NCBI GenBank assembly: GCA_008632985.1
Contig: QPGO01000204.1
Location: forward strand, 1-64,000
Length of the DNA stretch: 64,000 nt
Reading direction: 5' to 3'
DNA from: Psammoneis japonica
Taxonomy: Eukaryota
Shown here: positions 1-64,000 of the stretch, piece by piece
Layout: every line of letters begins with the position of its first letter
Position numbering within the stretch: position 1 is the stretch's first letter
Position numbers and translations under genes: made by a program
Notes under the pieces: generated by a model
The model's input: only the letters and a program-made list of their open reading frames with translations
What the model was told of the DNA's origin: nothing
Databases searched by the model: none

Positions 1-1325
1 GTTCGGTTGGCTTGGCAGCCACATTTTTGCAACGCACTTTTGCCATGTGGAAATGTGCAGCATGTGTGGCATGCAGTCAGCTGCCGTGCTTGTGTGCATG
101 TGCACTGCACAGAAAATTGCCAGCAGCTTTCCTCTCACATGGTTGAGCTGTCTCTTCTGGCCATGACTTCATGGCCGCTTGTCACAGATGGGTGCAACTG
201 CGCCACCTGACACATGGACTTGGCATTGACAACTTGTGGTTCAATCATGCTGACCCAGTGTGATGCTTGCAATGTTGAGAGCACACCACAACAAAAAACT
301 TGATGCTTTGGAGAAGGAGACATTGTGGTGTGCTGCTGGGAGTGGAGAGCTGTGTGGAGTCTGATGCGCTGATGTCACAAAACTGCCTTTTTGGCTCGTC
401 TGTGTGTTGAGTGGTCTTTTCATCTCCCCACCAGCTCACACTCAAAGGGTGTGGGAAAGCCAGGTTCATGGCAAGTCAATGCAGAATTGGCAGAGATCAT
501 TGTGCCATTGTGCAGACCAAGTGGAGCTGTTGGCAGATTGCTTCTGCACAGATTGCACACGTGTGAAAGTTTGGCAAGGTGCAAAGAAGGTTTGACAAAA
601 ACAAAGCCAGCTGAAGTTTGCCATTGTTGGCTGTTGACTTTCACTCTTTTCTTTTGACAATGCCAGGTTTGAGCAGATTGGAGGGAGGCCACTGTGCAGC
701 ACCTGCCGTGACACGTCAATTTTTTCTTGAAGGCAATGGGCAGCTGGCGCTGCACCACACGCGTGCGTTGCCAGCGCTGTTGTCTTTGAAGCAGCAAGAC
801 ATGTCCAATCTCTCAACTTGCAAAGAAAACTCTGGCAGAAGGTGCAGTGGCATGCAAGTGTGGCATTGCTGTTGACAGTGTGCTGGAGCAACATGTGACA
901 TGCGGAGCCTCGTTGCACATTGACAGACACCGTCTCCAACTCTTTTTGGGTGGAGATGGCAGTTTCATTTTTTTGTTTCACAACTGGCCATTGTGTGTTT
1001 TTTTAGATGTGTCATGGTGTTGTTCAGGTGCAGGTGAGTTGACTTTCAGTGTGCAGACAAAATCTTGAAGCTGATGCCGAGCAAACTGGCAAAACTGCTG
1101 CTGCTGGCGGCGGCGGCGGTGGTGGTGCTGCAAGCCTCTTGGCGGGGGGCACAGAACAAAGACACTGAGCAGGCAGCTGCTTCATCTGAGTTTCCAAAGG
1201 GGGGAGGGTCACTTGTGTCACCATCGGCAGGTTGCCCAACGCATTTACACATCGAGAACTGAATGTGACTCACCCGGACTCCGACGTTCGCTGGAGACGG
1301 GGGTTGTGCGTGTTGTGCATGTGCG
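1..1325. other. TpA-erased (TG/CA-rich) domain 1, unidentifiable decayed sequence
   Basis: By eye only ~2 TA dinucleotides in ~1320 bp (near 1004 and 1246). TG/CA are strongly enriched and CG is reduced. There is an abrupt switch to TA-rich sequence at ~1330. Confidence 0.85.
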
Positions 1326-13891: not shown

Positions 13892-15365
13892 GATATTACC
13901 GCCCTCGATGAAGTGCAGTAGCGGTCGTAGCGTTGCTTATATCAAGTTGGGTGTTTTCTACTAGTAGAGAGTCGTGCCGTGACCCGAGTTATGACTTTTG
14001 CCCATCGGCAATCGGCGCAGTTCAGCTCGATTACGATATCTCGAGTGTTCTTCGCGCTTCTCGCTTCCTCTTCTGCTTGTCGTCGTCTTCTTGTTGTTGC
14101 AGTTGTTCGGTTCTAGTTTGTTCTACCGTATGACAGCAGAGTGATGGCAGCTGCACATCAGATCATGGTGTGCTGTTGAGACGCGTCTTTCCAAACAGCA
14201 TTGAAACTAAATATACATGGATAAAAGACATGTTAATCAGCATATGAAAATTTTAATTAAATTGAGAATTAGTGTATATATATCTAATCATACTGTAATA
14301 TAAATATTACTTTATATAGTATTCATTGTATTTTTGCACTTACAGTGTTATTTTTTTTCGATTCCTTCACGTCATTCATTACAGCAGGTATGACAGAACT
14401 GCACTCATCACCCCCTTGCCTGTGGCACACTTTTCATCAGCCTTTCTAGCCAGCCACCTTGCTTGTTGCCAGCATTTAGAACAGAGAATTTCTAGAATGG
14501 GCATGATGTGTGGCTTCATGATGCCCTTGTCAACATCGCTGGTGTGAGAAAGAAGGTGGGCATGGCTCTGGCTCCCACCGTTTTCTCCCCAAACGTCCGC
14601 AACAGCACCGCCATTTTATTTTTGCTGGCTGATGGCAACCCCAATGTTGCATGTGTCTGGACATTGACACATGTTGCATTTGGCAATCTGTGCCAATGCA
14701 TTGTTCATTCATTGTGAATGACAGAGCAGCACATCGAGCGCGCCATCCAATGTGAAGAACCTGCACTCCTGGCCTGTTCCAGCTTCAGGTGCTCTGTGCG
14801 GGTTCGATTCCCATCATTTGGAAATTTGTGCATTTGACGCAATTAACTTTTTCCAAATCCGTTTTTTGCCAAATCGAAGGGCAAGTGTGCACTTCACATG
14901 CATTTTCGGGTGCACACTCACCTTTCGATTTTCGAAACGATCAAAATTGAAGGAGTCAATTGCGCCAAACTGCACAGAAAATCTGCCTCTCGCATGATGA
15001 AAAGCAGATCACCTGGAGCTGGAACAGGCCTCCTGCTGAATCATGAGACACACACTTTCCTGCCAGCAGATGTGTTTGACATTTCAAAGATTTCCATGAC
15101 TTGTCACACAAGGACAGTGGCAGCCACAAGCACAATGTGCTCGGCCAACAATCACAAATTTGACGTGGCGCTGCTAACACGACACCACATCCACAGCTCA
15201 CAATTAACTTCACATGTGTGTGCCTTGCTGTGCTTTGAAATTTTGAAAGTGGTGATTGATTGCAGCAAGAACAGCTGAAATGTTCAATTTTTTGCCTGTG
15301 GCTTTTTAAGCGCATGTGGTGAGTTGACAATGGGCACATTGCACTTGTTTCTCGCACATCAATTG

Positions 15366-15641
15366 TGACAGAAATTGAAGGCAAATGGCAAGAATTCAAA
15401 CAATGACTCCTTGCTGCTGTCTAAATGGCAGATGAGTCTCCGCTCAGAGACCATTGCAGGAGCCGAAAGACGTGTGAGTCGGTGTAATCGGGCTGCTGTT
15501 GTTGTCCTTGTGAGCCTTGTGGCTCGAAAGCAAACTACATCGCGCGTGAACGCGTGGAACTAAAGCACACAAAACTGTGCGCGGTAAACTAAACAGCGCG
15601 CGACACTTCGCGCGCACCCAAATCCTGTTCAAATCCTGTCA
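15366..15641 (-). repeat. 3' LTR (276 bp)
   Basis: Direct repeat of 22198-22473 with TG...CA termini and a 6-bp terminal inverted repeat. Confidence 0.95.
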
Positions 15642-15647
15642 CTCCCC
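15642..15647 (-). other. Polypurine tract (GGGGAG on the minus strand)
   Basis: ctcccc directly abuts the 3' LTR, which is the canonical PPT position. Confidence 0.75.
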
Positions 15648-18577
15648 AGTTTGCTTGAGGAGTCACAGAAACAGATTCGACTTCGGATGGAATGAAGTTC
15701 CAGAACATGAGGGGGCGGAGAAGGTCCCAGATTTGGGAGTGACCCCAATGCTTGCTGAGAATGTCAGCAGGGTTGCGGGAGCCTTCGATGAAGTGGAACT
15801 CAAGGCAACCAGAGGCAATTGCCTCACGCACACGGTGGAACGATGGTGCGGTGTGTCGCTTGTGTAACTTGGAGTGCGGGATGGTGGCACTGTCTACAAC
15901 CGACTTGTTGTCACCGAACATGCAACTGACATTACGGATCGGGACGCCAAGGCAGCGCAGGGTGATGCGCAGGTCGATAATCTGCTCAACACAAGTCCTT
16001 GCGGCAACAAATTCAGACCCGCAGGTTGCAGTCTCCATGGTGGCTTGCTTCTTAGAGAACCAATCAGCCGGGAATTTGTTGAGGAAGTGGAGCATTCCCA
16101 TGACAGAGCGTCCGGTGAGCATGCAATGGCACAAGTTTGCATCGACGTAGTGGGTGGCAGTGATGAACTTGCCAAGGGGCGGTGGAGCATCCTTTGGGAT
16201 CATCTCTTCTGCTTCGCCACACACGGAATGCATCCATTCACAGGCCGGAGCAGGGAGATCCGAACAGTCGGGCTCTTCCGTGCGAACGCGGAGAGCACCG
16301 TGTCGCATCTTGGAGAGGCACCCACAGATGCGTTTGGCACGATCCAAGTGGCCTTGACGGGGCGCAGCTCGGAAGCTGGAGAGTGACATGACGGCCGTGG
16401 CAATGTCAATTCGACCAAGGGACACTGCCCATTGGAGTGAACCAACAAGAGACTGGAACTTGTGAATGCCATCGGGTCCCAGCAGTTCAGAAGTGTCCAG
16501 TTCGGGGTGGTCACCCTTCTCCAGAGGTGACAGGGCATTGGTGGCAGGTTTCTCCCCAAACAGTCGGGCGCAGCTGTCGACCATGCGCTCGATGCACTTG
16601 CGCGGAGACAGGCACAAGGTTCCGTCGGGATCCCGGGAAAAGTCGCAACCCAGATGGAACTCAATGGGTCCCGCACCCTTGAGCTTGAACTTGTGCTTTT
16701 CCGTGAGAGTGTCGACGAAAGATTGAGGGTCCTTCATGGCAATGGCGAGGTCATCCACATAAACGGCAATGCATTCACAGTGGTCGCCGTTCCTGCGCAT
16801 CCAAATGTCGGGTTCGGCGTGGCAGGGGAAGAAGCCTTCAGCTCGCAGGCAGTCGGCGAAGCGCTCGTGCCAGCGGAGACCGGAGCTGCGCAGTCCATGC
16901 AGTGCCTTGTGGATGACAAGGATGTGTCCTTCGAGTTTGCCAAATTCGGGTCCGGCTGCAATGTAAAGCTTCTCCTTGGTGGTGGCTTCAAGGCAGGCAT
17001 TGCCAATGTCAGTGGCCCATGTCTCCAACTCGTTGAGTTCGGCCAGGAAAATCATCAGCCGAAGGCCATGGAGGGAGACTACTCCGGAGCAGACACTGTC
17101 GACAGGTACGTCCGTGAGGTGCCCGTCGGCTACGAGTCGTGCCTTGTGGCGACCGTCGTGTTTCACGTCGTGCACTGGGTGCACTCGGATCTTCTTGTGT
17201 CCCGCAGGAGGAGTGGAAGACTTGAAGGGCCCGCAGTCATGGAAGACTTCGCATTCGTCGAGTTGGTCCATCTCGAGATTAGTTGCGTCTCCCCACTTGC
17301 GGTTGCCGTTGCGTTCGTCCAGTGACATGGCGTGTTTGCAGTTCCGGGGAACTTTGCATCCGCACTTGTAGCGAGGTGCAGTGCGGAAGGAGCGAAGCTT
17401 GGCTTGGTTGGCCATGCGAAATGGCTTCTTTTGGCGCCTCGCGATGGTGCGGAACCGCTTCCAGCCATCCGTGTCGAGGAGTCCGTTCTCTCGTGCGTAG
17501 ATGGCACAGGTGACGGGGTCGTCCTTGGCAATGATGGCAAGAGGCTCGGATTGTGATCTCCCCACTTTCCCATTCAAGCATGATGTTGTAGCTTGAGCCT
17601 TTCCAGGTTGGGTCGTGAGGCTTCAGAGGTCCTTCGTGTGACACGATGCGTCGAAATTTCCAAACAGTGGTGTCTTCGTCTTCTTGCTCAATGTGATTCA
17701 TGATGTCATTGCAGGCAAGGACTTCCTCGCATTCGTCATTGTTGACAGAGCAGACGAACTTGGTGAGCTCGGGATTGCCGTTCACTTTCCATTCGTGGTC
17801 TTCGACGGCCTTGACGATGCGAGCTCTGTGGCGTTGTCCGTCCTCTTGTGGCTGCATGAGGAAGGTACGTCCAATGATGTCTTGTGGATCGAAAACTGGC
17901 ATCTTGGGTGTCCTGATCTCCCCATCAGGAGAATCGACGGGGTTGTCGTCATGGCGAGATTTGATGATGGTTCAGGTGGCTCCCCATCAGGAGGATCAAG
18001 ACGCAGGTTTCGAACGGCAGGATCGGTGGCAGCGGAGCGGACGTTGGACCGGCAGAGGATCTTCTGAGTCTCGTCAGATAGAATCTTGAAGGTCATCTGG
18101 TGGCCGACGTGCTCAGCAATGCCAACGAAGCGTCCACGCAACTCACGGGATTCGGACGGCCAATCGGAGTCATCGAGGTGGAAGCACACGGGTTCCCACC
18201 AGTGAAAGCGAAGCAATGGGCTGATGTCCGGGGTGGAGCCAGTGAGAGTCTCGAGGGGCGTGCGCCAGTGGAGACGTGGGGACGCTGTGTGGTTGAGTGT
18301 GAAGCACACGCACATGAGCGCCAGCAGCCATGTGTGGGCGGGCGAACCAAAACGATCCATGACGGTGTTCGCCATGCGCTTCACGGTCTGGTGTCGACGC
18401 TCGGCAAAGTTTTGGTGTTGCTGGTGAGGCTCACTTTGCCAGCTGGAGATGAAGAGGGCGCGTAGGATCCCGAGCACTTTGTTGCTGATCTCAACTTGAG
18501 CACGGTCGCCAATGAGTTTGGATGGGGCACCACGTTCACGGATCTGATCCTCGAGTGTGTTGACAAACTCTTTGTCC

Positions 18578-19009
18578 NNNNNNNNNNNNNNNNNNNNNNN
18601 NNNNNNNNNNNNNNNNNNNNNNNNNNNNNNNNNNNNNNNNNNNNNNNNNNNNNNNNNNNNNNNNNNNNNNNNNNNNNNNNNNNNNNNNNNNNNNNNNNNN
18701 NNNNNNNNNNNNNNNNNNNNNNNNNNNNNNNNNNNNNNNNNNNNNNNNNNNNNNNNNNNNNNNNNNNNNNNNNNNNNNNNNNNNNNNNNNNNNNNNNNNN
18801 NNNNNNNNNNNNNNNNNNNNNNNNNNNNNNNNNNNNNNNNNNNNNNNNNNNNNNNNNNNNNNNNNNNNNNNNNNNNNNNNNNNNNNNNNNNNNNNNNNNN
18901 NNNNNNNNNNNNNNNNNNNNNNNNNNNNNNNNNNNNNNNNNNNNNNNNNNNNNNNNNNNNNNNNNNNNNNNNNNNNNNNNNNNNNNNNNNNNNNNNNNNN
19001 NNNNNNNNN
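18578..19009. other. Assembly gap (N run) inside the integrase region
   Basis: 432 N characters. Confidence 1.
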
Positions 19010-22000
19010 GATGGTCTCGTTGACAACGACACGATGGCGGCAGTTGCCGCATTCGTCAAATGGGTTGGCAGTGGGATCGTCCTGAGGTCAGAGATCGCGT
19101 CGCACCACTGGTCGTCGTCAGTGACAGAGTGATCGAGGACGGAAGGGTCCCATGTGTCATCACCGGTGAGGATGACATGGGGCAGGGTGTCCCATTCGGC
19201 GTCAGTGTGAGGTCGCATGGCAACACAAGGCAGGCCGGCCTTGATGTCAATGGGGATGACACAGCCATCAGGAGTGGCAACACGTTGCAAGCCGTTGGGC
19301 ACCTTGACAGAGCGATCGTTGACATCCTGTTTGCACCATTCGAGCTGGCCGCAGGAATGGATGGTCTTGCCCTTGCCCGTGTGTGCGCACTGATGGAGGA
19401 TGGCGATGACGGGACCACGCTGGGTCTCAATGATGGCACCAGCGGTGACAACAGGGATGTCCACCAATTGATGATCGTCAATGCCCTGAACGTCGACTTG
19501 GCGAGAGGTGCGTGCAATGACGCAAACGTCGTCGCCAGCAATGCCGCCGTTGGCCCCACGATCGACTAGAGCGCCAGTGCGTGTGGAGCGATGAGCAGAG
19601 GCAGAGCAAATGACATTGTGGTTGTTGACGCGGCGGTGAGTGCGGCCGTTAAGTTCCATGTCATCTGCAGAAGCTGGCGGGGTAGAGGAAGCGGCGGATG
19701 GCCCCGGTCGACTGGCATTGGGGGCTTGGTTAGGAGACAACAGACGTTGCAGATCACCGGGTGGCAGTGGCTTGCGCTTGGTGAGGTGCGCCAGGATGGG
19801 ATTGTCCGAAGTGGCGTCCACATTTGGAGCGGAGTCACCAGAGTCAGCAGGAGTCGTGTTGGACAAGTTGACATCACCGTCACTCCCAAGGCGTTGGTCG
19901 TGAAGGTTGGCCGTAACAGACTCATGGCAGTTGCTGGCTCGCGGGTTGCGGGGAGGCGGACGAGAATGCTCAAGGATGATCGCCTTGGAGGAATCGGGCA
20001 ACGAATCCCAGATCCGTTGGTGGTCGGGAGGGAGACGTCTCCATTGGTCACCGGTGAGGCTGGGACCGCGGGTGCAGGCAGCATTGGCCTGAAGGACGTC
20101 AATGTCGCTGTCAATGTCGTAGAACACATCGTCGGACGGTTCCTCGGAGCAGACGTCGTGTGCGTGTGTGGCGCGTCGGGGAGCTCGAGGTGTCGTCTTG
20201 GGTTGAAACGCACTGTCGCACTGAGCTGCCGTGGAGAGGAGCAAGCCACAGTGTTGATCGCATGTGAGGCTCTTGCCACTCTGCGTGCGATGCTGATCAG
20301 CTTGGTTCTTGACAGCACGGAGTTCCTCGACAGGGTGCACGGCATTCTCGAGCATGACGCGCTTCTGTCCTTCAGAGAAGTGGTCACTGGCCGGGATGAG
20401 TGCCTCGCACTTGCGCAACTGATCTTGCCAATGAAGGATGAACCCGTGGGTCGGACCTTTCCAAGTGCCATCACCAAGACGTGCGGTGGTGAGGTACGTG
20501 AGCAGGGTGGAGGACTCGATGGATGCGCGGGTGGAGGCAAGCGCGCACTCAGACAAGGCGCGGCAGACGGTCTGTGCGTCAGAAGACCCCACATTTTCGC
20601 GAATGAGAGCCTTGCCCTTGTCGGTGAGAAGGATGCGTTCGAAGACGGCGAACATGCACTTTTGCTGTTCAGCAAAGAGCAGTTTGTCTTCGGGGCTGGT
20701 CGGTTTGTACGACGAGTCTAGAATGCACTCGACGTCTTGGGCACGGGCTTGTGCCACAAGTGAGGTGTGCCAAGTGTGCCACTGCTTGTCGGATTTGAGA
20801 GCCGTGAAAGCGGTGGGATCACGCTTGATGCCTCGCTTGAAGTCCCGCACCGGGTCGCGTGCCTTGGTCGGGTTGGTGACATGCGGAGGTGCAAGGGGTG
20901 AGCTGCCGATGGACACAGAAGACATGCAGTCGGGGCTGAGGCGGCAGGCAAGGAACTCGTCATGCGTGAACAAAGAGGAGTCATTGGCAACGTCAAGACC
21001 TTTGTGTGCTTTGACAATGTACAGACTGGCCAGTGCTGCTAACATGTTCTTATGACCACGGGGCAAAGGGATCACATTGGTGCCGTTGTCGCACTCAAGC
21101 GAGTCGATTTGGGACGGCATGAACGTGAACAGTTCCTGATGCGAGTCCGTGCCGTCTTGGGCCAAAGCCAAACGAAGAGGACTCCCAGCACCTTGGGCAA
21201 GCACGGTTCCAACAACGTGCTTGAAACCATCGGTTTGTTGCTGACGAGTGAGAACCATGGCAGACAAAAGTGGTGTCAGGACAATCAATTCTGGTTGGGA
21301 AGCGAAGGTAGACTCGAAACTTGGGTGAGAATGGACTTGACTTGAAATGGACTTGACTTGAAATCTTGAACTATCTTAAAATCAGAAGTCGCCGGGCTTT
21401 GCTGTCCCGTTCGTTGTCAAGTGCTAAACTTCCCATCCGGTCCGCAGAGTTGTGCCGGCACGTCCGAACCTGCAGCCAGCGGCACTTTGGGTTGCTCACG
21501 AGTGGAGCAGCAGGTTGCAAACCCCTGCAGGCAAGCTGACTGGAGGTGGACAAGACCCCCGAACCGTTCTCATTTTATGTCGGTTGGATTTCCCGATCAG
21601 GCTGGCCAGTTGACGCAGGCGTCAGGCGCTGTGGACGAACGAACAAACGCGGGAAAGCACCCTCGCCCCAACGCAGGCTGCAATCACGGCTGCTTGCTCT
21701 CACAGTCGTCCTCGTGGACCCAGTGGAACTGCAGAGCACCAGCAGTCCGGGGCAGATCAGGTGCAATGGACTCGGTGTGCTTGCAGAGTGGTGGCAAAAC
21801 CGCAGTCTGAAGAGTGGGTAAAGGTTCTTGGCCGTGAAGACATGTGTGTGCACATGTGTCTTCAGCGACTAAGGTCCTTGAACATGCAGGGTTCTTGACC
21901 GTTAACTGAGGAATGGGTGTGTCAAGGGATGTTGATCAAGGACAGACTTGGATGTGACCGTTGAATGCATGTCTTCAGCGATCAAAGGTGGTGTGATCAA

Positions 22001-22197
22001 TCCAGATGTCCAGCGGCAAGGAGACTTGACGGTGACGTTAACTTCCTGCCGATGCCCTGGTGTTGAATGCGCGTAGACTTGCCGATGCATGTAGGACACA
22101 CACGGAGGTCCACGCAGGATTGAAACAGCGTCGTTGGTAAATCAACGACGACGATGGCGGTTGCTCAATGGGTTGACAATGAGCAAGACTGTTAATC

Positions 22198-22473
22198 TGA
22201 CAGAAATTGAAGGCAAATGGCAAGAATTCAAACAACAACTCCTTGCTGCTGTCTAAATGGCAGATGAGTCTCCGCTCAGAGACCGCTGCAGGAGCCGAAA
22301 GACGTGCAAGTCGGTGTAATTGGGCTGCTGTCATCATCCTTGTGAGCCTTGTGGCTCGAAAGCAAACTACATCGCGCGTGAACGCGCGGAACCAAAGCAC
22401 ACAAAACTGTGCGCGGTAAACCAAACAGCGCGCGATGCTTCGCGCACACCCAAATCCTGTTCAAATCCTGTCA
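22198..22473 (-). repeat. 5' LTR (276 bp)
   Basis: Direct repeat of 15366-15641 with 17 mismatches by manual alignment, all transitions and no indels. Confidence 0.95.
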
Positions 22474-23428
22474 TTGCACCACACATGGGGGTTTGTGAGA
22501 TGTGATCTGCTGATTGACTGTTGCAGCTCTTGAGGGCAGCCAAAATGCCATTGCAAAAAGATGACCCCACAAAGTTGCTGTGGTGCTGAGGTGGTTTGTG
22601 CCGGTTTCCGGCTGCAGTGCACCACGCCAGCAAAAATTCATGCTGAAGAATCCAAGTCCCCATGCTTGTCAAGTGAGCATGGCTGCTGCTTTGTGCATCA
22701 TGTGCCCACCATTCTCAGTGACAGGGCTGGCAGCAAAAAAATGGTGTGATTTGGCAGAAAAAAAAACAGCCGCTGCTGAGTTCTCGCCTGTCACAGGCTG
22801 TGTGTTCTGCTCTGGTTGTGGAGAGCATTGGCATTGATGCCACAAGTTGTTGCAGTGCCAACTCTGGATGCTGGTGGAGAGGAATTTTCACTCTCTGAGA
22901 CCATGTCTGCTGCATTAATGCCTGGCAGCCTGGCAGTGTTGCATCCAACAGCAGAGGTGTCGGTAGAGCAGACAACCAAGCAACAAGGAAGCCTTCGGGA
23001 AGGCAGATAGAGCGATGAAGGAACCAGACAAGCGAACAGAACAAAGTATCTTTTGATGGCTCCGTTGAAGTTGCATTTCTTTATGTAATGATGACGTCAA
23101 TGCAATGGGGAGGGAAAGAACGCGAAAAAATCCAATGAGAACCCTGACACCTCCTCCATTCAAAAACGCGAAGTCCATCGCTACTTCAGCTTTCTCATCC
23201 CTCCGAACCAATCACAATTCTCAAAATAGCAAAACAAGAAACAAAGATTTTACCTGCCGATCGTTTTATTGGCTGTCACATCACATCACATCACATCACA
23301 AAAAGAGTATCGCGTTTACCGTGTTAGGCATTCTTTTCTTTAACAAGATCAACAGGTACAAGTACAGTAAAACAACCGATTGATTCGTGAACAAGAACAT
23401 CAGAACATTTTCCTCGACAGATCAAGAA

Positions 23429-34716: not shown

Positions 34717-36273
34717 TCACCGGCTATGATGATAGTCATACAGCGATCGCACGATACAAATTGCTCTGAGAGAGTCCCCGCCTAGCATACAAAAGCTGGA
34801 CGTTGACATGAGAATGGTCTTCTCAAAGGGTTGGAGATTGAGGCAAGAGAATACACAGTGTTCGACGACAGCTCCAGAGAGTACCATACTCCCGTACCAT
34901 AGAGGCAAAGATGCTTCGCCGATTCGCTCTTCCATTGGTCTACAGTGTGTTAGCCTGGGGAGTTTTTGACGGTCTCTCTTACCTGTCGCGGAAAGAGGCA
35001 TGCGGGAAATAACGACGAAGCGGATGACGGAATACAACCTTTCTTGAGAAGGTCCTAGCATCGTGCCTGTAGCATTGCAAGTAACTGGCCCGCGCTACAC
35101 AGCACACCTTTCATTGTTTCGGCTTCGCTGTTGAAATTGATATCCATTTCTTTGCAACATTTTGGAGTCAGCACGCAAGAAGCAATAACCGTTTTGTTGC
35201 TTTCTCTTCCTCTGGGTCGATAGATTCCGCAGCGACGGAGTGGGAGCTTTCCGTGTCTACAACTGCAGCCTCGATTTCCCATCCTCGCCATCAATGCGTC
35301 TGATGATATGAAGAAAATGATTTTCAGCATCGATGTACCGGTATGTAGAGCCACCTGTTTTATAATAACACCGGTACTGTGGCTCTTGATTCGAAGGTAG
35401 TTGGCCCACACCGCCTGCTCTCTCGTGTTTCGAAAAGAACTTGAGTCCGCTTAACTCCGGTTGATTCAAATAGCCTCTGAACTCATCAACTTGCAAACCG
35501 GACAAGACAACCTCCCGTATGCCCCTGTGTTCATAAACCGACTCGGACTCTATTTCAAGCCAAGAGCCTTTATTGGGTTTCCGACAACCTGCCCCTTTCG
35601 GCTTCCAGCGAGAGCTGTGTTTTCGGTTTGAAATACTTCTCCGCACGTTTGATAGACGCATGCTTCAGTCACACCGCATAGCTAGGTTGCAAGCGGTCTA
35701 GCTATCTCGGGAAGCGCATGGATGGCTTGCCCTTTGCCCGTGCCCATTTCTGTACGATGCGTTTCGGAATTGGCTCTCTTCCGAGGTCAATCACTTGTAA
35801 ACAAGGCAGTTCATTTTGGTGACTCATGTTGCTGTTGCTGACCGTATGGAAACTCATCATGCTCAATAGAGTTGCAGTGCAAAGTAAAATCACCAGTGAA
35901 GCCAATACATGCCATAAGCTTTCCACCAAGCTTCTGCGGGGTGCAACTTCTCGTGCAGCATGCACAGCATGGCAAATGTCGCCAAGACATCACTGAAGCG
36001 TGGATCAAATGATTTTGAACTCGCCAGCAGGACTGTTGAGGCAGATGTAATGGCGTGAGCTTTGTTCTTGTCAGCCAAGTGGTTTCGAAGAACTTGAATG
36101 GAGCACACGCATCCTTTGGATTTGCCAGCAGTTCCCGAGGCACACACAGTGTGAGACATTCGCTCCAAAGCAGAAATCAAATCGACAAGGTTCTTTTGGT
36201 TTTTTGTTTCATTGACAATCATCAGGTTCATAAACTGGATCCCACGCGCACGTGCGACGGATGAGCGAGGCAC
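34717..36273 (-). pseudogene. NRPS-like adenylation + thiolation domain gene (AASDH/ACSF4-like), fragmented
   Basis: Degenerate A3 motif (CASGTAGKSKG, canonical YTSGTTGKPKG), SFD, LGREPIP (canonical LGGEP), GYLNQPELS, YKTG, MPLSATGKRDR and carrier motif LGGDSL, spread over several frames with stops. Confidence 0.8.
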
Positions 36274-36879
36274 GAACGAAAAGAGCGTGACAGATTGTGG
36301 AGCTCAAAGCCAATGCCAGACATGTCAAAACAACCGCAACACGAAAACCTGTTGTGGTTGATGGTGGAACAGGTGAGGACACATTTTCTGCTGGCTCCAG
36401 AACACACAGAGCTGGAATTGAAACCGAAAACTGAAGAGACTCAACTCATGTGCGATGATCGCCTCTCTTGCTGGAAGCAAAAATCTCATGGGCCATGAGG
36501 CACAGGAAGAATTCACAGAAACGCACCCACAAGCAATGCATGAGATTGCAACTTTGATTGGTGGCAAATCTGTTCTTCATTGGGTCCATCACTGCAAATG
36601 TGCTGCGAAATTGAAACAAGACAATTTCTCTCATTTGAAGAAGATGAAACAGAAGATGGGCTCAAGCCTGCACGCAAAACATGTGGCTTCGTGCGGCCAT
36701 TGTTTGGCACAGCTTTCCACAGTTTAGATTCATCCACAAACCAGGCACTCATGGGACCAACATTGTTTTGTCATTGTGCATGTGAACAAGTGCCAACGCT
36801 GCTGCCCCCCCCCCCCCCCCCCTTCAGAAGCTGCCCGACTGTGGCTGACCCAGCTCTTGTTGAAATTCTTCTGCACTTG

Positions 36880-38420
36880 GCTTGAAAGGTCTCTCCCACT
36901 GTCACAGCAGAGAGCAGAAGCGGAGCAGATTTTGGTGGAAATGTTGAGGTCCAGTCTGACGTGCTGCATTGATGTGCATCATCCTTCCATCAGAGAAACT
37001 GATGGCCTGACATGAATGGCTTGAGAGAGAGCTCCTCATTCTTCATGTTTGTTTGAAAGAGACAAAAAATCAAGGAACAAGGAGGCAATTTCAGAAGCAC
37101 TGCCACAAAACACAGTTCAATCTCATTCTCCTTTTTGTCAACTCCTTCTGTTGACAGAGATGCTTTGAGGTGATTGCTGGCCTCTCTTCCTGCCAAGTCC
37201 ATTCAGATCATCTGCCCACCCACCCTCTCAATTTGGTGCTGTTGGCCCTGTGGTGGAGGCACTGAGGATTCTAGATTCCTGCCCCAGCTTGAGTGGGTGG
37301 TGCTGCACCAACACCAGCAAACCAAGAAGTGCTGAATTGCTGCCAACACAACAGTTGATTGGCCTGAGAGAGTGCAAGGGGACGAGCTGCCAAAGTGGCA
37401 GCAGCCACTGTCACAGTGGAGTGTGGAAGTGGGAAGCATTTTGGCAGAAACCTTGAGGTCAAGTTTGCCTGACATGCTGCGCTGATGTCTGTCCTTCTGT
37501 CATGGAAACTGACATCCTGACATGATTTTTTTAGAGTGAGCTCCTCATTCTTTGTTTGCTTCAGAATCAAAAAATTTGCAACATCTAAAAATTTGCAACA
37601 GATTCTGAATCCCTGCACAGTTGCTGCATGGCAATTCATGACATGACCTTTGTTGCTCTCTAAGAAGATCATCTTTGCTGCACAGGCAACATCCTCTTTG
37701 GTGCAGCGCAAGGTGATGGAGCTTTTTTTACTTTGATTGAGAAAAGAGAGGCGGCGCAGGAGAAATGACGAGAAGTTGTTGTTTTCAAAGGAAATTGCCT
37801 TCTTGTGACAGCAACTCATGTTGACGCATCGCAAGATTTCAACAAAAATGACCTTTTTGGACAATTGCGCCACCTTTCCTCGCAACAAACAAAACATCAC
37901 ATGGCTCTTTGTGATCATGACAATCTGATTGGTTTGTTGTTTTGTGTTGCTTGCAAACCCTGTGGTTGTTGAAACAGCAGCATTTGCTCATTTGAGGCAA
38001 AAAATGAAGCACTCTGAGACCTTTCAGGTGCTTTTGTCATGAAAAAATTAAAGCTGTTTGTCTTCATAAATTGGTTGGCGAAACTTGCAAAACTTTGCAT
38101 TTCAGCAGTTTGAGGGGGGCAAAGAATCAAGAAGCAAGGAGGCAATTTCAGGAGCATTGTGCCATGGAACACAGTTTGGCACACATCTCATGTGTTGTGC
38201 AAATGTGCACACAGCAGGGCAATGGATGGCATTGCCTGCAAAAGTCTTGGACACCCACCACCCGTGCTCCCACTCATGATTCTGGATTCCTTTCCTGCCT
38301 TGAGTGGGTGGTGTGCCAACCCAGTGTAAAAGCACTCACTGCCAACACCACAGTTGACCAGCCTGAGAGAGCACAAGGGGATGAGCCACCAAAGTGGCAG
38401 AGCAGCCACACAACTCCGTG
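36880..38420. repeat. Diverged, interleaved duplicated blocks
   Basis: 37267-37410 resembles 38278-38410, 37065-37118 resembles 38120-38178, and 36880-37050 resembles 37400-37560. Copies differ by TG<->CA swaps (gagagTGcaagggg vs gagagCAcaagggg; gagcTGcc vs gagcCAcc). Confidence 0.7.
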
Positions 38421-38449
38421 TGAATGGGCAATTTCACAGGCATGACATT

Positions 38450-39422
38450 TTTGCATGAGACATCCCTTGGGTGACAACCATGCCAGATTTTGGAGCTTGC
38501 AATGTCATGTTGCAGCAATGCTCCATCAGAGGTTCCCACATTTGCCCCAGATGAAGATGGTGCATCTGCTCCAACCTGGGCAAGTGCCAAAGCTCCATCC
38601 CCAAGGCATTGGAAGCTGCTGTTGGAATGCAGCACTGGAGGACTTGTGCACCAAGAAGACATGGGCTTGTTTCTGATTGATGTTGTGGTTCAGCATGCCC
38701 TTTTTTGTGAGAGACTGTGAGAGTCAGTCTTTGGTGAGATTGTTGATCTTGTGTTGCAAGCTCTCTTGGAAAACTTGAAGCAGGATCAGATCACTGGTTC
38801 TTGCCTCATGCTCTGGAGCAAGTGCTCTTCTTTTGTTGCCCACATGTGCTGCTGCTCATTCTTCTTGAAATGTCTGACTGGAGCAATTGACTTATGATCT
38901 TTGACTGTCAAGGCATGTTGCCACTTCACTTGGCAGCAGCAAAGCCCATGCCCAATGCCCTGCAGGCTCTCCATCAAAACAAGCACTTGAGCAACATGGG
39001 CTCTGCCCAAATGAGTCAACCTTTCTTTTTGTTTGGGACAAAAGTGGTGGAAAGCAAAAGCAATGTGATTTGTTTGTTTTGCTGAGTGGTCATCCTGGGC
39101 AGGCATTGGCTCATCCAGCAACATCTGGTGGTTGGCTGGTGACACCACACTGGTGTGCCATTACATTGTGTCATCTGTGAGAAGCAGCAAAAGACAGCTG
39201 TGGAAGGTTGTTGCAGATTCAGTTGCTGCTCTTGATCCAAAGACAACAAGAGTGTTCCCACACTTGCTGGCTGTGGCAGCAGCTCCCAAAAAGCCTCTTT
39301 TGGGCATCAAGAGAATGTCAAACAGCAGACTGGATGCAATGTTTGAGTTGGCTCATGTTCATCCAGAGCTGCTTCAGCCAGGAATGCGCCCAAGCAATTT
39401 TCTCCCCAAACCAATGCAGTGA
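38450..39422 (+). pseudogene. Decayed ankyrin-repeat-like gene
   Basis: DCQGMLPLHLAAAK ankyrin motif, plus a C-terminal DPKTTRVFPHLLAVAA...LDAMFELAHVHPELL segment resembling diatom ankyrin-like proteins. Multiple stops and frameshifts. Confidence 0.5.
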
Positions 39423-39999
39423 CTGAGAAGTGTCTGAGAAGGCTGTGCTCTCATGCTTGTCATGCACGCAGAGAAAGCATGAGCCATGGAGCACTGCACA
39501 CATGTGCACATCACCTGCCATGTGGCAGATTGCAGCAACCTGAATTTTTTTCTGAATGAACAAAGGTGCTGGCAATGGGAAGGGGAAAATTCAGCATTGG
39601 AGCACAAGCTTCCAACCCATGTGAGTCATTTGCATTTTTATGTTCACCTGGGGGGTGGGGGGTGGGGTGGGGTGGGAAAATGACCTGGGTCATGACCAAA
39701 GTGTTTCCATGTGCTCATGCCACAACAGCCCCAAATTTCTGCACAATTTGAGCCAGCGCAACTCAACACTCTGTCCCAACCTTGTTTCTTGCCATTGTGT
39801 GCCTGCTTTCCATCAATGTTTGTCTTGAGGAAGAAGAGTCCATCACCACAGCAGGCAACAAACTCAAGCATGCTCCAACAACCTCTTCAAAAAAACTCAA
39901 GCATGCTCCAACAATCTCTTCAAAAGAGCTTGATGCCATGATGGGCCAGCTGCCAAGCACACCCCACCCCCAACAATGATGTTCATGCCCACTTTTAAG

Positions 40000-41620
<1,621 letters not shown>

Positions 41621-49929: not shown

Positions 49930-51150
49930 GGTGTGTTTGCCAACGTGATCAGAAAATTACGTTTGGGGCCATGGCGGACAGTTTCTACGAGTGCATGCTC
50001 AAGGTGTGGTTGCAGGGTGGAAAGACGGAACCAATGCACCGAAAAATGTGTGACAAGGCGATCCAGGGCATGCATGATGAATTGCTTCACACGTCAACGC
50101 CGTCCGGTCTCACCTGCATTGCCGACAATCTCAGTGTGCTGAACCGAACAGGAAAACCAGAGGCACCGTGGGAGCTGGTATATGCGCACGTAGAGTAGAT
50201 TTGTACGCTTTTCTCCCACTGGTGGTGCCAGTGTCATTTGGTTATTTTTTAAACCCTGTCTCGGTACACGTCATTGTATCCTGACTCTCCCACTCGTCGC
50301 AGGCACCTGGTATGGGCAGTGCCGCACGGCGGACATTATATTTATGTAACGATTTGTCATAGGGAGACAATCAAGATGGCTGCAACACATCAACTAGCGG
50401 AATTCTCGGTCGAACTCGACTTGCCTTATATGTATATTGAAGTTGGTTGTATTGGGCATATGTGCGCCATAGGAGGCGACTTTTTGGTAGTACCTATATA
50501 TGTGGATAGGGCCATCTAGAGTAGGATGATGGACTTTTGATAATTTTAAATTTAACGAACCGAACAGGAAAACCAGAGGCACCGTGGGAGCTGGTATATG
50601 CGCACGTAGAGTAGATTTGTACGCTTTTCTCCCACTGGTGGTGCCAGTGTCATTTGGTTATTTAAACCCTGTCTCGGTGCACGTCATTGTATCCTGACTG
50701 ACAAGAACAGTGGTCGCATCGATCACAAGATGGACCATTTGGTTTGCTTCATGGGAGGTGAGTTTTTCGCATTTCTCCCGTGTTGTCTGATGCTGGTGGC
50801 ATTGTTGGTCCTCATTTTCAATCCCATGGCAAGCGGTCGAGTCCATGTTCACCCTCAATCAACTCACGGGTGATCCAGTGTGCCGAGAATGGGGGTGGGA
50901 AATGTTTTCTGCAATCGAGCGGCACTGCAAAACCAAGATTGCCTGTGGACAGTTGAACAATGTGCAAGACGTGAACGGACCGCCACAAGACAAGATGGAG
51001 CCCTTCTTCTTGGCAGAGACTCTCAAGCATTTGCATTTGTTGCAGGACCCAGATGCACCCGTGGACATTTTAAACAAGCATGTCTTCAATGCAGGAGCAC
51101 ATCCAATGCGAATCTTTCCAGCAATTGACAAGGAAGGGAAGCAAGCAGTC
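49930..51150 (+). pseudogene. GH47 alpha-1,2-mannosidase fragment, interrupted by an insertion
   Basis: Motifs FGAMADSFYECMLK, MDHLVCFMGG, AVESMF, REWGWEMF, DKMEPFFLAETLKHLHLL and HVFNAGAHP. Confidence 0.9.
50129..50699. mobile_element. 571-bp non-coding insertion with a 5-bp TSD (GACAA) and ~145-bp direct repeats (TRIM-like)
   Basis: GACAA at 50124-50128 and 50700-50704; removing the insert restores IAD-KNSGRIDHKMDHL. Direct repeats at 50141-50286 and 50557-50699. A purine run (gagtgggag, minus strand) lies next to the first repeat. Confidence 0.8.
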
Positions 51151-51391
51151 AAGCAGGCCCAGCTCCATGCTCTGGCAGATGGCCCTCTGCTGTCAGAGAG
51201 AGAAGATTTGGGGCTGCGGTGGTGCGACTGGGGCCACTGTGTGTTTTGACGATGTTGTGTTCAACACAAAGAGTCGACTCTCTAAAACAACTGCCTGTTC
51301 ACAAGCACTCATGCACACAGCTCCACCTGCCCATTTGCAAGCGCCGAGAGTCAGTCGTCGTCGTTGGGATGTCGATCGACGCGGTGTTTGG

Positions 51392-51685
51392 GCACTGGTT
51401 TTGATTGCCCGAGTCAATGCCGGTGAACAATTGTTTTCGCCGTTGCTCAAAACCATTGAGGCCATTTCGTCACAACAAGCCAGAGCATGGGCAGCACTTG
51501 TTTGTTCCCATCGTGCCGCAGCATTTGCAACAAGACCTGCACTGGTTTTGATTGCCCGAGTCAATGCCGGCGAACAATTGTTTTTGCCGTTGCTCAAAAC
51601 CATTGAGGCCATTTCATCACAACAAGCCAGAGCATGGGCAACACTTGTTTGTTCCCATCGTGCCACAGCATTTGCAACAAGACCT
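51392..51685. repeat. Tandem duplication, 2 x 147 bp
   Basis: Copies start at 51392 and 51539 and differ at five positions, four of them CG vs TG/CA. Confidence 0.9.
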
Positions 51686-54462
51686 TGCAGGGTGTGCTGG
51701 AAATTCGAGTGGAGTGCCAGCAGCCATGCCTTTGGATGTGAATGGAAAGGAAACGCGAGGCATGCCCGCATCGCATGCACTCAACAACATTCCAGACTTG
51801 TGTTCGAGGAGTGTGCTCATGGAGACATCAAACAAACGGGTCTCCCTTGGGCTGGAGGCAGCCACAGTTTCTCTCTGTTGCACTCATGGGGACCATTTTT
51901 TTGTGCTGCTGGTTGCGCCTCTTAAGTTCTTGGCATGGCCTCAGGGGAGATGCACGTGATGAATCTTGGCTGAAGGGCGACAGACAATGCTGGGGGCAGG
52001 ATCCGAACATTCTTTTCTGAATCATGGCGCGTCTTCCAACGGGAGCTTTTGGTCCTTGTTTGGCATGTGGATCATGTGTCACTGGACGGTCTTGATGGCA
52101 CGAACCAATCGACTTCGACAAGTTTGGGTGCGGATGCAGAACAAAAAAAAGAGCTCGATTCCCCAGGCGAGTGCATCATCGTGAAATTGAGCAGCAGCGT
52201 GTCGCGTTTCATGGTGCTTTTACGCCATGTCGCTGCACACCGGACCAGAATGATGGAGACATGCGAGTCGATGCAGTTGTGCCTGCTTCTACCACTGCAT
52301 GCAATCTGCATGCCACCAACCATCGTGAGGGATGACCAGGGATGACGCTGCGCAAAAGGTGCCATCCACACTCTCTGTGCGAGAGGGACTCGGCAAACCT
52401 TGATTGATCCATGAATGGCCAACAAGACCAAAACAGCGGACCTGCCAAGTTGCACGCGTTGAACGGTGGCATGGACAGCAGCTCCAATGCCTTGGTCAGT
52501 CACTCGTCCTGCCAATCTCGGGCGGAAGACTCGTGAGTTTGCAGTTGACAAGGCAGAGATCTGCAAGACCAGTCAGCAAGCCAATGTTGGGCAAGCAACG
52601 TCTCGAGCGAGTGACAAGTGCTCACATCGAGAATGCGAGGCTGGCTTTGCATTCCAATCTTGTTGGGAAGCGAAGGCAAGTGTAACAGGTGCAGCTTCAC
52701 AAAGGCTTGGCATCAGCATGTCTCGGCAGGCACGGACTTGAGCTGCTTGCAACCAGAGAGACTCAGTCATTGAACCTCTGGGAGCCACTTCGCGTCTGAC
52801 GTCAAGGCTGCAATGTCCACATTTGAAAAATCGAGCGAAACATCCTGCCTTGCTCGTCGTGTTTCATTGTGGTGGCCAATCTCGCTCGTGACACGGGCTT
52901 GGCCCATGCGGCAAGAGCAAGTGTGGGGCTTGGCACAATTTTGACTCGCTGCAAGCAGAAGTGCAACACACGTTCAATCCGTTCAATGCGAGATTCTCTT
53001 CCATGGTAGAATTGTGGATTGTTGTGCTGTGTTTTGATGCACATTGGAGAGCGACACCCGAAATCGCAGTGTGGAAGCAGGAAAAAAGAGTTCTTGGCCA
53101 AGAGATGTCTTGTTTGGAGAATGCGAGCTGCTGTCGCCGCCGTTTGAGTCAATGCTTCGCCGGGTTGGGTGAGTGCTTGCCAAACGTTTTGACTGCTTTT
53201 GGTTGCTCTGCCAACCATCTTTCTTTGTTGTCAAGGCTTTCTCGGCGATCGGATGATCATTGAATGGAGGCGCGGGAGGAGGGAGAGGCCAGTGGATTGA
53301 TTTGTCTGCTGGGACTGCGAGCTTCGTTGGGGTTGGGACATTGAATGGCATCAAGATGGGGCAGTCGGCCTCGAAGGATTGCGTGGCCCTCTGAAGGCAC
53401 TCGTGGGTTTTGGGTGGTGGACGCAAAGGTCCACCTAGAATCGGGTCGCCACTGTCAGGCAACGACCGTGCGTCCGATTCTTGCTTGGGCTCCTGTCCGA
53501 CGCTTCTGCACTTGGCAACCCAGTGGTCCATTTCTTGTGGAATTTGCGACAAAGAGGGGTGTGGAAACTTGACTGTTGACCCTGTCTTCGAGTGGGACAC
53601 TTTTTCGTAATCTTGCTGCTTGCAAACGCATCGTGTCTGGGACCAAGAACGTGAAGCAAATTCCGATTTCTAAAGCTGCAGCAGCACATGCATTTCGGCA
53701 GAGGGGAGCATTAGCGGCTGGGGTGATTTGCCAAGGCTTGGGCACTGTCCAGCTCTCAAGAGGGACAAAAGCCTGTTTCCACATGACTCCAAACCAATGG
53801 CGTGACTCTTTTGCATTGAAGTGTTGAACCGGGACATCACAAAAGATCTGTGGACATGGACAGCTCGAAAACCATCATTCCACTTCTCTTGGAGCCTGGC
53901 AGATCTGGCCAAATTGATGAAGCAGGGAGTGTGTCATCTCCGTCACGAGGACACCAAGCATGGCAATGTGGGACCTCTTGCTGTGGCACTTGGCAGCTGG
54001 ACCGCACTGGACGGGACTGCTGCAACGAAGCAAATGAATGACTCGTGATCGCTTCCTGTTGCCTTTGTCAGTGACATTGAGTCGCTGTTTTGACGATGAG
54101 CAGCACTCTATGTCGCACATTGTGTCTTGTCAATGAGCATCTCCAGGTGACAATCAACAGGGTGCGTGGTGCCAAGCGGTGTGTTCTTTGAACACGCACT
54201 CATTTGTGATGATTTCTCATCATTGATCTGACGATTGTGGAGCTTGTCTTTCATGCTCTCTTCCTCCCCTGGGATTGCGTGACAGATCGCATGAACTCTC
54301 GGAACCGATGGGTTGTGCGACTTGACAGAATCGTCACTGTGAGTCGCACCAACTTAGTGTGGTTCGGGCATCAGAGACACCGACCTCGTTTGAGTTCTTG
54401 GGCGCATTCCGCGATTCCAGAGGTGAGAAAGAAGAACGGTTAGACAAGCTCCACGCAAACCT

Positions 54463-56376: not shown

Positions 56377-57156
56377 GGTTGATGCTTGATGACAACAAAA
56401 GACGAGTTGTCCGTTTTGTGAGATGGAGTGGGAAAGCGCAAAGCGTGGAAGATGACATGAGCACTGGTGGCCACGTGGTTTCTACGCAGGTCCCAGAGAT
56501 CACAAAACCGGGACACGTTTTTTTTCTGTTGTCAAAACCTGACCAAAACACCGTTTGGCATCCCTCGGCGCCAATGTCAACACCGTTTTGGAGACTCATG
56601 ACGTGATCAACTGTTGCGATGCCGACAGGTGATGATTTGTGCTGTTGGTGCTTCCTGCGTGTCATCGTCTTACAACTTCTGCTGCCACAACAACTCAGGT
56701 CGAATGTTCTCGGCATCATTGCCCTGCAAACAGCTGCGCACTCTCTGCTGGTGGCGACTGGTGCAAAAAATGTCTTAAATCTCACGAACGCGATTCACAA
56801 ACATTTGATGGCATCACTCGATGAAAAACACAGCAATCCCAAATCAAATTGTCTCAGACTTTTCTAAAGAGATCTCCCTTTGGGTTTGTGATGGTCATTT
56901 CTCGTCAAAAGAATGCTCTGTGCACCCAAATGAAGTTCATTGATCATTTTCTCCCTTCGAGTTGTGATTGTCATGACCAAAATTTAAAAAAACAGCAATC
57001 ACGAGTAAAGCGCCACTCCGACTGAGTTGGTCGCGAACTTTGATTCGCTCGCCTCACTCCACCTCGATCAAAAGTCTCACAATCTGGAAATCTCCCATCG
57101 CCACCTCGCACACTGTTGCGCTGGTCGCGCCTTTCCCACCATCCTGCTCCACCATC

Positions 57157-63600: not shown

Positions 63601-64000
63601 TCCATGGATTCCTTTGTTACTTCAACCATCTTCTCCTTGGATTTTGATCGTTGTTTGGACGTTTCTTTTTGACATGCCGGTGTTATTTCGTCATTCCGAA
63701 GGCACTGCTTTCGTGCACCATGCGGATAAATGTCCATTTTTTGTGTTTTGTTTCACCATCGCTTCAACTGAGTGCTGTGTGCGGTCGACGTATAGACTCT
63801 ACGATGGAGAGTGTTGGTGTCTCTGGTCATTTTTGTCATTTGCAACAAACGATTGACAGACTGTGTACAACAAGCAGTGCTAGATAGCATGTCCTGAGTC
63901 CTGAATCTGTTTGACAATCGTGCTGTGTATGCTGTGTTTGAATCATCACATCTGCCTTTCATCTGCTGCAAATCGAGTGATGTGGCTGTTTTGTTGGTGG

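Follow-up and report, generated by a model that had tools for sequence, protein, structure and literature searches.

Probable TpA-directed hypermutation of a Ty1/copia retrotransposon and its long terminal repeats in the diatom Psammoneis japonica

The first 64,000 nucleotides of contig QPGO01000204.1 from the diatom Psammoneis japonica (GenBank assembly GCA_008632985.1), here called the window, contain two 276-bp direct repeats, which are the long terminal repeats (LTRs) of a Ty1/copia retrotransposon. The element is defective, belongs to a very high-copy family and lies on the minus strand. Taken as a whole, this element is best explained by hypermutation directed at TpA, which changes A:T pairs to G:C, and we consider it likely that the most conspicuous differences between its LTRs, TG in one copy facing CA in the other, are TpA sites that were hit on opposite strands. 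A specific and directional loss of TpA is seen in the element body, the loss is organized in blocks along the window, and TG, CA and TA are polymorphic throughout the family.

A repeat search between 14 and 24 kb returned a single direct-repeat family with two ungapped, 94% identical members, LTR A and LTR B (Table 1). Both start with TGACAG and end with CTGTCA. Compared base by base, they differ at 17 of 276 positions (identity 93.8%), and all 17 differences are transitions, with no insertion or deletion. Five of the differences are swaps of adjacent bases: at LTR positions 39–40, 110–111, 135–136 and 138–139 LTR A carries TG and LTR B CA, whereas the order is reversed at the fifth site, 239–240 (CA in A, TG in B). 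At positions 196 and 225, TA in LTR A is paired with CA in LTR B, and at positions 88, 124, 190 and 249 CG in one LTR corresponds to TG or CA in the other. Position 89 is the single difference outside a pyrimidine–purine (YpR) pair. This recount agrees in every item with a preliminary description of the element, which had listed the same 17 mismatches in the same classes. The clustering is not expected of random sites, since at least six adjacent pairs among 17 sites in 276 positions occur with P = 1.1e-4 (200,000 simulations); likewise, differing positions are concentrated within YpR pairs (16 of 144, as opposed to 1 of 132 outside; Fisher P = 2e-4). A control was drawn from the terminal repeats of related elements found in metagenome contigs. 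Among 13 loci with a candidate pair, the six ungapped pairs with differences were compared (L012, L072, L075, L064, L042, L067), leaving out two identical pairs (L013, L080), a 4169-bp identical duplicate (L015) and four pairs that were gapped or not LTR-like (L004, L027, L036, L052). No TG/CA swap was present in the six pairs, in which transitions account for 2/4, 6/9, 9/18, 0/1, 1/1 and 22/38 of the differences, but the control is weak because the pairs may be assembly overlaps.

The direction of change can be read from the element body. In an alignment of the reverse transcriptase (RT)–RNase H frame with 13 homologues, the window departs from 40 columns whose conservation is 85% or more; 10 of these 40 departures fall within the first 24 residues, beside a frameshift, and are probably misaligned. 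The departures include 13 changes of Tyr to Cys (TAY to TGY), two of Tyr to His (TAY to CAY) and one of Leu to Pro (CTA to CCA), while the conserved residues that are kept comprise 3 Tyr and 23 Arg. Changes of Lys to Arg, Asn to Ser or Asp, Glu to Gly, Gln to Arg or His to Arg were not found at any conserved column, conserved Asp included. As there is no A-to-G change at conserved columns beyond TpA, the A-to-G changes are confined to this dinucleotide.

A broader outgroup was taken from metagenome contigs, where 602 pattern matches included 406 confirmed relatives, of which the best 80 were used. This set is biased against hypermutated copies because both search patterns contain Tyr. At 19 conserved Tyr columns, these 80 relatives together display 1285 Tyr, 4 Cys, 29 His and 106 other residues, and 79 of them have no Cys at all; the window displays 3 Tyr, 13 Cys, 2 His and 1 Phe. 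Outgroup proteins, 13 to 80 in number, thus set the direction of change as TA to TG or CA. All four Cys residues of the relatives belong to one locus, L056:1-2363, a metagenome contig with 61% protein identity to the RT of the window, which carries 6 Tyr, 4 Cys and 9 His at the 19 columns. It is the only one of the 80 relatives with the same Tyr damage, its whole-locus TpA odds ratio of 0.33 is the lowest among the 80 loci, and it represents a second hypermutated copia element, located on an environmental contig.

Dinucleotide frequencies of the RT–RNase H region were compared with 78 of the 80 loci, two having been dropped due to short alignment or wrong orientation. TpA amounts to 7.5 per kb in the window and 52.1 ± 13.9 per kb in the relatives (minimum 15.6; z = −3.7). 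Tyr makes up 0.8% as against 4.7 ± 0.6%, Cys 4.5% as against 1.3 ± 0.4%, and the GC content is 57.4% as against 47.2 ± 3.5%. CpG, at 68.6 per kb compared with 43.7 per kb in the relatives, is not depleted, whereas about 85% of TpA is gone from the element body. With the exception of AA, all other dinucleotides lie within 2 standard deviations of the relatives.

The loss extends beyond the element. Along the 64-kb window TpA drops from 35–60 to about 0–8 per kb in four sharp-edged blocks (Table 1), a 7- to 10-fold depletion. Odds ratios in the blocks are 0.05–0.2 for TpA and 1.3–2.5 for TpG and CpA; in the host genes between the blocks, the TpA odds ratio is 0.45–0.8. The sharpness of the edges is illustrated by the second block, where TpA is encountered every 10–50 bp up to position 35915 and then every 100–550 bp up to 39996. 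In this block CpG is also nearly absent from about position 36960 (3 per kb at 38–40 kb), and the odds ratios of TpG and CpA reach 1.7–1.9.

Variation among copies of the family was followed in four sequencing runs of one sample. Contig pieces of run X1, built by Logan, were placed on positions 14900–18577 (3.7 kb). Of the 8045 pieces, 2049 are at least 99% identical to the window, 2427 are 95–99%, 2590 are 90–95% and 979 are less than 90% identical, and 144 of 165 variant places are transitions. The family is thus present in very high copy number, and its copies differ mainly by transitions. YpR pairs hold 34 of the 40 variant rows listed out of 166, two of which lie within an LTR (15555 and 15606). 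Among the rows listed, nine have TG or CA in the window and TA in other copies, three have TA in the window and TG or CA in others, and six are accounted for by three linked swap sites. At the first of these sites, 15844/45, which is the CTA-to-CCA codon of the Leu-to-Pro change, the window reads TG and the family depth is 94.5% C at 15844 and 99.9% A at 15845; it follows that about 5.4% of the depth must be TA, that CG is restricted to at most 0.1% and that the depth of TG corresponds to roughly one copy. CA accounts for 30–35% at 18288/89 and 18298/99, and the A share exceeds the C share by a depth of 286.8 at both sites, an equal excess as expected for a few unmutated copies with TA at both. 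At all three internal sites, the tallies leave room for some TA and do not require CG. Altogether, they fit a picture in which many copies converted TA to TG or CA independently, and neighbouring sites tended to change alike, as seen at LTR positions 135–139. A further TA/CA polymorphism of the family is located just inside LTR B, where position 22193 is TA in the window and CA in run X4 contigs of other copies.

For the LTRs themselves, the preliminary description had proposed that a palindromic dinucleotide, either TA or CG, was resolved on opposite strands. This idea stands for the five swaps, with TA favoured over CG by the TpA loss in the body, the internal tallies and the number of swaps expected from CpG, and we infer that the five swap sites were TA. 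It does not cover the whole pair, since at least 4 of the 17 differences are attributable to ordinary CpG decay, which acts alongside the TpA process. With a loss of about 85% per copy, the majority of ancestral TpA would be hit in both LTRs, and 31–50% of these doubly hit sites would be discordant, so that five swaps call for about 10–16 doubly hit sites.

Several observations weigh against this interpretation. The GC content of the element exceeds that of the relatives by 10 points, which is beyond what TpA loss alone gives. Only one of the 17 LTR sites could be polarised by the family (15555, LTR position 190), and the depth of 97% C found there identifies this difference as a change of CpG to TpG in copy A. 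CpG decay is not negligible in the body either: in 12 of the rows listed the window has TG or CA where the family majority is CG (shares 0.91–1.00). In four others the window has CG and the family majority is CA, two of them at 98%, and here the simple model fails. The four runs may be the assembly's own source and are therefore not an independent confirmation. A gap of 432 N lies inside the element. A target-site duplication was not found when 3–6 bases were compared by eye with the LTR ends shifted by 1–2 bases: the left flank AATTG and the right flank TTGCA have only TTG (3 bp) in common, in agreement with the earlier remark that a clean 5-bp duplication is missing. The usual duplication length of the clade is not readable from the metagenome relatives, which end at their LTRs. 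Finally, four TpA survive in both LTRs, and TpA density is 14–22 per kb in the LTRs as compared with 6–8 per kb in the body, so that a uniform rate fails and context dependence is needed.

Such a dependence is apparent from the survival of TpA by flanking bases, calculated for the depleted blocks relative to the host-gene background, which is a proxy for the true ancestor and to this extent another reservation. Survival is 0.53 for TTAA, 0.37 for CTAA, 0.22 for GTAA, 0.17 for CTAC, 0.10 for ATAA, 0.05 for ATAG, 0.02 for ATAC and 0 for ATAT. The gain of TpG per tetranucleotide was set aside because base composition confounds it too strongly. The TpA sites that persist in both LTRs have the contexts CTAA, GTAA, CTAC and GTAA, and CTAA is also the context of both sites hit in one copy. 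If the swap sites were once TA, three of them stood in the context ATAA and one each in GTAA and ATAC, for which the survival values are 0.02–0.22. Context dependence therefore likely resolves the survival of TpA in the LTRs, although the agreement is suggestive and does not constitute proof.

It is conceivable, if somewhat doubtful, that the two LTRs do not stem from one insertion, either because copies of the family have recombined or because the scaffold joins two genomic copies across the N gap. In that case the mutational mechanism would stand, but identity at insertion and any dating would fall. Besides the gap in the middle of the element and the flanks that match in TTG only, instead of a 5-bp duplication, this possibility draws on the 8045 X1 pieces on 3.7 kb, as assemblies tend to break at such repeats, and on the LTR identity of 93.8%, which is within the usual distance between copies (2590 of the 8045 pieces are 90–95% alike). 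A common origin, in contrast, is favoured by the fact that both halves have the same orientation and belong to the same family, with a frame that reads across the gap. Moreover, the TpA load is similar on either side of it (18 in 2936 bp and 25 in 3188 bp), and both outer flanks are equally poor in TpA and CpG, as expected if they were once contiguous.

Provided that the LTRs belong together, their divergence is a poor measure of time. The overall value of 6.2% is composed of 11.1% at YpR positions and 0.76% (1/132) elsewhere, which bears out the earlier suspicion that LTR dating overestimates the age of the element. With 16 of 17 LTR differences in YpR pairs, a standard LTR clock overstates this age about eightfold.

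A former CpG at each swap site, if deaminated as 5-methylcytosine (5mC) on opposite strands of the two LTRs, would yield the same TG/CA pairs, and decay of this kind does act in the element, as seen from the CG majority at LTR position 190 and at the 12 internal rows listed. Furthermore, the flanks and the block at 37–40 kb are CpG-poor, and repressive 5mC on diatom repeats has been reported (Hoguin et al. 2023, as cited in PMC12344493), which accounts for the CpG decay component. However, 17 CpG are common to both LTRs and four sites show single differences at CpG, corresponding to a per-copy loss near 0.1. This loss predicts about 0.1 swaps, with P ~ 1e-7 for five or more; across losses of 0.06–0.2 the expectation is 0.04–0.5 swaps, and P ranges from 6e-10 to 2e-4. 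In addition, element CpG is at or above the level of the relatives, and at site 15844/45 the share of CG is capped at 0.1%, whereas TA is required for about 5% of the depth. A CpG origin of the swaps is consequently improbable, and CpG decay as the sole cause was rejected in favour of a partial contribution. Inversions of 2 bp were also discarded as a source of TG/CA pairs, since they would explain neither the Tyr loss nor the TA/CA sites.

TpA-directed hypermutation in the element body has a strand pattern. On the sense strand, TA became TG at 13 sites and CA at 3 (binomial P = 0.02). The sense-CA sites nearest the 3′ end (15740 and 15844) adjoin LTR A, which has sense CA at four of the five swaps, and together they look like a strand-coherent patch; the Fisher test on this patch (P = 9e-4) is inflated, because LTR states are visible only where the copies differ. 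In L056 the bias is opposite (9 His, 4 Cys), indicating that it is not tied to the sense strand of the element, which argues against RNA editing.

Changes before integration would have to come from A-to-I editing of the RNA genome or from editing of single-stranded reverse-transcription intermediates, in which case minus-strand DNA would have given rise to the pattern of the 3′ LTR and plus-strand strong-stop DNA to that of the 5′ LTR. The sense bias of the body (13 to 3) is in line with such a route, and 10 of 12 presumed LTR changes would fit sense TG in the 5′ LTR and sense CA in the 3′ LTR. ADAR-type enzymes moreover prefer U before the edited A, according to a preprint on Bigelowiella natans (Mettrop et al., bioRxiv 10.64898/2026.01.13.699255, 2026). 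Nevertheless, we regard editing before integration as very unlikely. RNA editing would leave the LTRs identical, the same TpA loss is present in the outside flanks and in three blocks without a recognisable retroelement, the bias of L056 has the opposite sign, and A-to-G changes beyond TpA, as in ADAR hyper-editing, are absent. In B. natans, comparable changes arise de novo in single-copy chromosomal DNA, as described in the same preprint (10.64898/2026.01.13.699255). An artefact, with a modified base of silenced repeats misread as a transition or reads from several copies mixed by the assembly, can practically be dismissed despite the high copy number, the gap within the element and the origin of all runs from one sample, given that 2049 independently Logan-built contig pieces match the window at 99% or more, that TG, CA and TA variants occur in separate contigs at high depth, that the unrelated metagenome contig L056 has the same signature, and that the changes in B. 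natans are heritable (10.64898/2026.01.13.699255).

The course of events proposed for TpA-directed hypermutation would be as follows. Blocks of repeated or foreign DNA in the diatom genome would undergo conversion of A:T to G:C pairs at TpA, turning TA into TG or CA depending on the strand hit. The process would be nearly saturating, with about 85% of TpA lost, and dependent on context, such that ATAT, ATAC and ATAG are almost eliminated and survival is highest for TTAA and CTAA. Over patches of hundreds of bases the process also appears to be strand-coherent. At the five swaps both LTR copies would have been converted, on opposite strands, and at the two TA/CA sites only one copy, while the approximately four sites with CG in one LTR and TG or CA in the other are due to ordinary decay of methylated CpG in the same blocks. 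Conversion would have taken place on chromosomal DNA after insertion. tRNA adenosine deaminases target A34, which is preceded by the conserved U33, and a preference for TpA would be natural for an enzyme derived from the TadA/ADAT family. A DNA adenine deaminase of this type, acting on exposed single strands, is a putative agent and corresponds to the candidate proposed for B. natans. Alternatively, a thymine modification mispairing with G could leave the same scar; a dinoflagellate-like route via 5-hydroxymethyluracil was also considered, and the data speak neither for nor against it. Whether diatoms possess a defence that resembles repeat-induced point mutation (RIP) but runs in the opposite direction, with silenced transposon blocks recruiting a DNA adenine deaminase, or a thymine-modifying system of equivalent effect, that converts TpA to TpG or CpA in strand-coherent patches to near exhaustion, is in our opinion evenly balanced.

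RIP of ascomycete fungi is likewise a blockwise process of transitions at one dinucleotide that disables repeats, hits both copies and is often strand-coherent within an event. It changes CpA to TpA and thereby generates TpA-rich, AT-rich DNA with many stop codons, whereas here TpA is destroyed, GC rises and stop codons cannot arise. RIP was consequently rejected for its direction, in view of the 7- to 10-fold depletion of TpA, the GC gain of 10 points and the outgroup polarity of TA to TG or CA. Decay of methylated CpG has in common with the present changes that TpG or CpA originates from a palindromic pair on either strand and that it acts in the same blocks, but it can neither turn Tyr codons into Cys or His codons nor remove TpA. 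Deaminase-driven clusters of transitions in retroelements are also known from ADAR and APOBEC in animals. APOBEC was excluded because its changes, C to T or G to A, have the wrong direction. ADAR edits RNA in a loose context and would leave the LTRs alike, unlike the strict context, the involvement of both strands and the affected non-element flanks observed here. Compared with the Ty1/copia elements of diatoms, known as the CoDi groups, the element shares RVT_2 and short LTRs with TG..CA ends and differs in that this copy is dead.

The closest precedent is B. natans. In mutation-accumulation lines of this species, 231 of 302 new nuclear substitutions fell into two integrated viral regions. 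With one exception these were A to G or T to C, invariably at TpA; the rate was about 6e-7 per site per generation, and only some lines were affected (10.64898/2026.01.13.699255). Reverse transcriptase and DDE domains were found to be over-represented among its low-TpA genes, an ADAT2-like adenine deaminase was proposed as candidate enzyme, and thresholds of 0.43 or less for the TpA odds ratio and 1.52 or more for TpG/CpA were applied (same source). Both cases involve A/T-to-G/C changes restricted to TpA, with TpG or CpA depending on the strand, in blocks of foreign DNA, and both display a long-term signature of low TpA with high CpA plus TpG in clustered 1-kb windows. They differ in the host, a rhizarian chlorarachniophyte there and a diatom (Stramenopiles) here, and in the target, a single-copy giant-virus or virophage insert there and, here, a high-copy LTR retrotransposon together with blocks without identified content. 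Repetition may or may not be the trigger in the diatom; in B. natans a single-copy region was hit (10.64898/2026.01.13.699255). The TpA odds ratio is 0.45 in the virus region of B. natans and 0.05–0.17 here, a far deeper depletion; on the other hand, a de novo mutation rate was measured in B. natans, whereas the signature described here is historical. Diatoms, LTRs and retrotransposons are not mentioned in the preprint, and tetranucleotide context and co-occurring CpG decay were not found in its available text. A report of TpA hypermutation in diatoms was not found in the literature, preprint supplements lying outside the scope. Relative to B. natans, the novelty would consist in the host lineage, the target class, the much deeper depletion, the flanking-base preference and the co-occurring CpG decay.

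With TpA-directed hypermutation known from this one preprint of 2026 (10.64898/2026.01.13.699255), the diatom signature, near saturation on retrotransposons, would extend its range to a second major lineage, in which some species are open to genetic work and knock-outs could thus lead to the enzyme. If a RIP-like defence does exist in diatoms, elements would be killed without stop codons, with GC raised, Tyr codons erased and LTR clocks rendered meaningless. Together with Bigelowiella, it would then be present in two distant branches of the Stramenopiles–Alveolata–Rhizaria (SAR) group, suggesting that the system is either ancient or repeatedly acquired. Because such a process destroys TAA and TAG and makes no stops, dead elements would keep long frames in several phases and could be mistaken for intact genes. 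It would also provide a mutational source of GC-rich, TpA-free islands.

Table 1. Positions of the element, its parts and the TpA-poor blocks in the window.
Feature	Position	Strand	Remarks
LTR A (3′ LTR in element orientation)	15366..15641	-	276 bp; plus strand TG at four swaps, CA at one; 6 TpA kept
LTR B (5′ LTR in element orientation)	22198..22473	-	276 bp; plus strand CA at four swaps and at LTR positions 196 and 225; 4 TpA kept
Purine-rich tract CTGGGGAG (minus-strand reading)	15642..15649	-	adjoins LTR A; read directly, taken as polypurine tract
RT + RNase H frame, 677 aa	15589..17622	-	RVT_2 at residues 139-348; continues into LTR; conserved Tyr: 13 now Cys, 2 His
Bridging frame	17279..17971	-	one base out of phase with both neighbours; from reading frames
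Upstream frame (gag to integrase-like part)	17782..21375	-	read through N gap; from reading frames and homologue alignment
Assembly gap	18578..19009		432 N; inside element, integrase-like part
TpA-poor block around the element	14500..22915		reaches past the element by about 870 bp on the left and 440 bp on the right; flanks CpG-poor
Second TpA-poor block	35916..40097		TpA 3-5 per kb; sharp edges
Third TpA-poor block	50691..64000		TpA 3-10 per kb; runs past window end
Fourth TpA-poor block	1..1245		one TpA in 1245 bp; runs past window start

The assignment of the element is based on a Pfam match of its RT frame to RVT_2 (PF07727; E = 8.7e-26, 91 bits, cut-off 31.6). Its orientation follows from the purine-rich tract directly before LTR A, which places the element on the minus strand with A as the 3′ and B as the 5′ LTR; in the related element L052, AAGGGGAG is situated ahead of a TGACAAC LTR start. 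A protein search yielded 1914 relatives at E ≤ 0.001 among 8000 candidates scored, with a best identity of 69%, and the protein is 57–74% identical to hundreds of elements in aquatic metagenomes. Beyond the gap, residues of the upstream frame can be aligned to the N-terminal extension located ahead of RT in intact homologues, part of which lies in the gap. No Pfam family was detected in the upstream frame, and an integrase family was matched neither by the fragments of the window nor by the intact homologues P0002 and P0015. The pol region requires three frames, with two frameshifts near 17.55 and 17.97 kb. Together with the conversion of 15 of 19 conserved Tyr to Cys or His, these frameshifts show that this copy is dead. 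One-base differences from the family at 17551/17552 (about 48% of X1 depth) and at 17968 (74%) match both frame changes. A second copy of the element was not found within the window, and a degenerate LTR pattern gave 0 matches to other family copies in metagenome, genome and viral contigs.

On the left side of the element, the summed contig depth is about 35,000 at 14900–15030 and drops to about 900–1800 by 15023–15268, with loose ends at 15031, which suggests that another repeat family ends near 15031, beside the copia insertion. The blocks at 14500–22915, 35916–40097 and 50691–64000 contain many long stop-to-stop frames on both strands, which are nearly free of Tyr; since TAA and TAG need TpA, open frames in such blocks are no sign of a live gene. 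A Pfam scan covered 12 frames, of which 11 belong to the other TpA-poor blocks, one of these to the block at 35916–40097; it returned no family above the cut-off and one WVELL match below it. Only weak internal repeats are visible in the block at 35916–40097. The block at 50691–64000 is divided into patches of opposite TG/CA asymmetry: CpA exceeds TpG at 51–56 kb, and at 61–63 kb TpG is far above CpA (odds ratios 2.3–2.5 and 1.35–1.4, respectively); there CpG is also low and the GC skew is −0.23 to −0.25.

Outside the blocks, host genes with long exons and normal TpA are located at 2067–13936 (minus strand), 24816–26930 (plus), 29526–30164 (minus) and 31548–32948 (plus). The region of 2–14 kb is filled by a gene for a DOCK-family exchange factor with very long exons. 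A tandem array of 75-bp units, 94–98% alike, is embedded in open frames of both strands at 44093–44545, in host-like DNA with normal TpA. The gene at 31548–32948 is intron-less and encodes a serine hydroxymethyltransferase of 467 aa with 89% identity to that of Craspedostauros australis, 87% to Nitzschia sp. and 86% to Seminavis robusta, which assigns the window to a raphid pennate diatom and not to Bigelowiella. Two further host frames, recognised by motifs alone, presumably encode the beta part of a transhydrogenase and a protein kinase.

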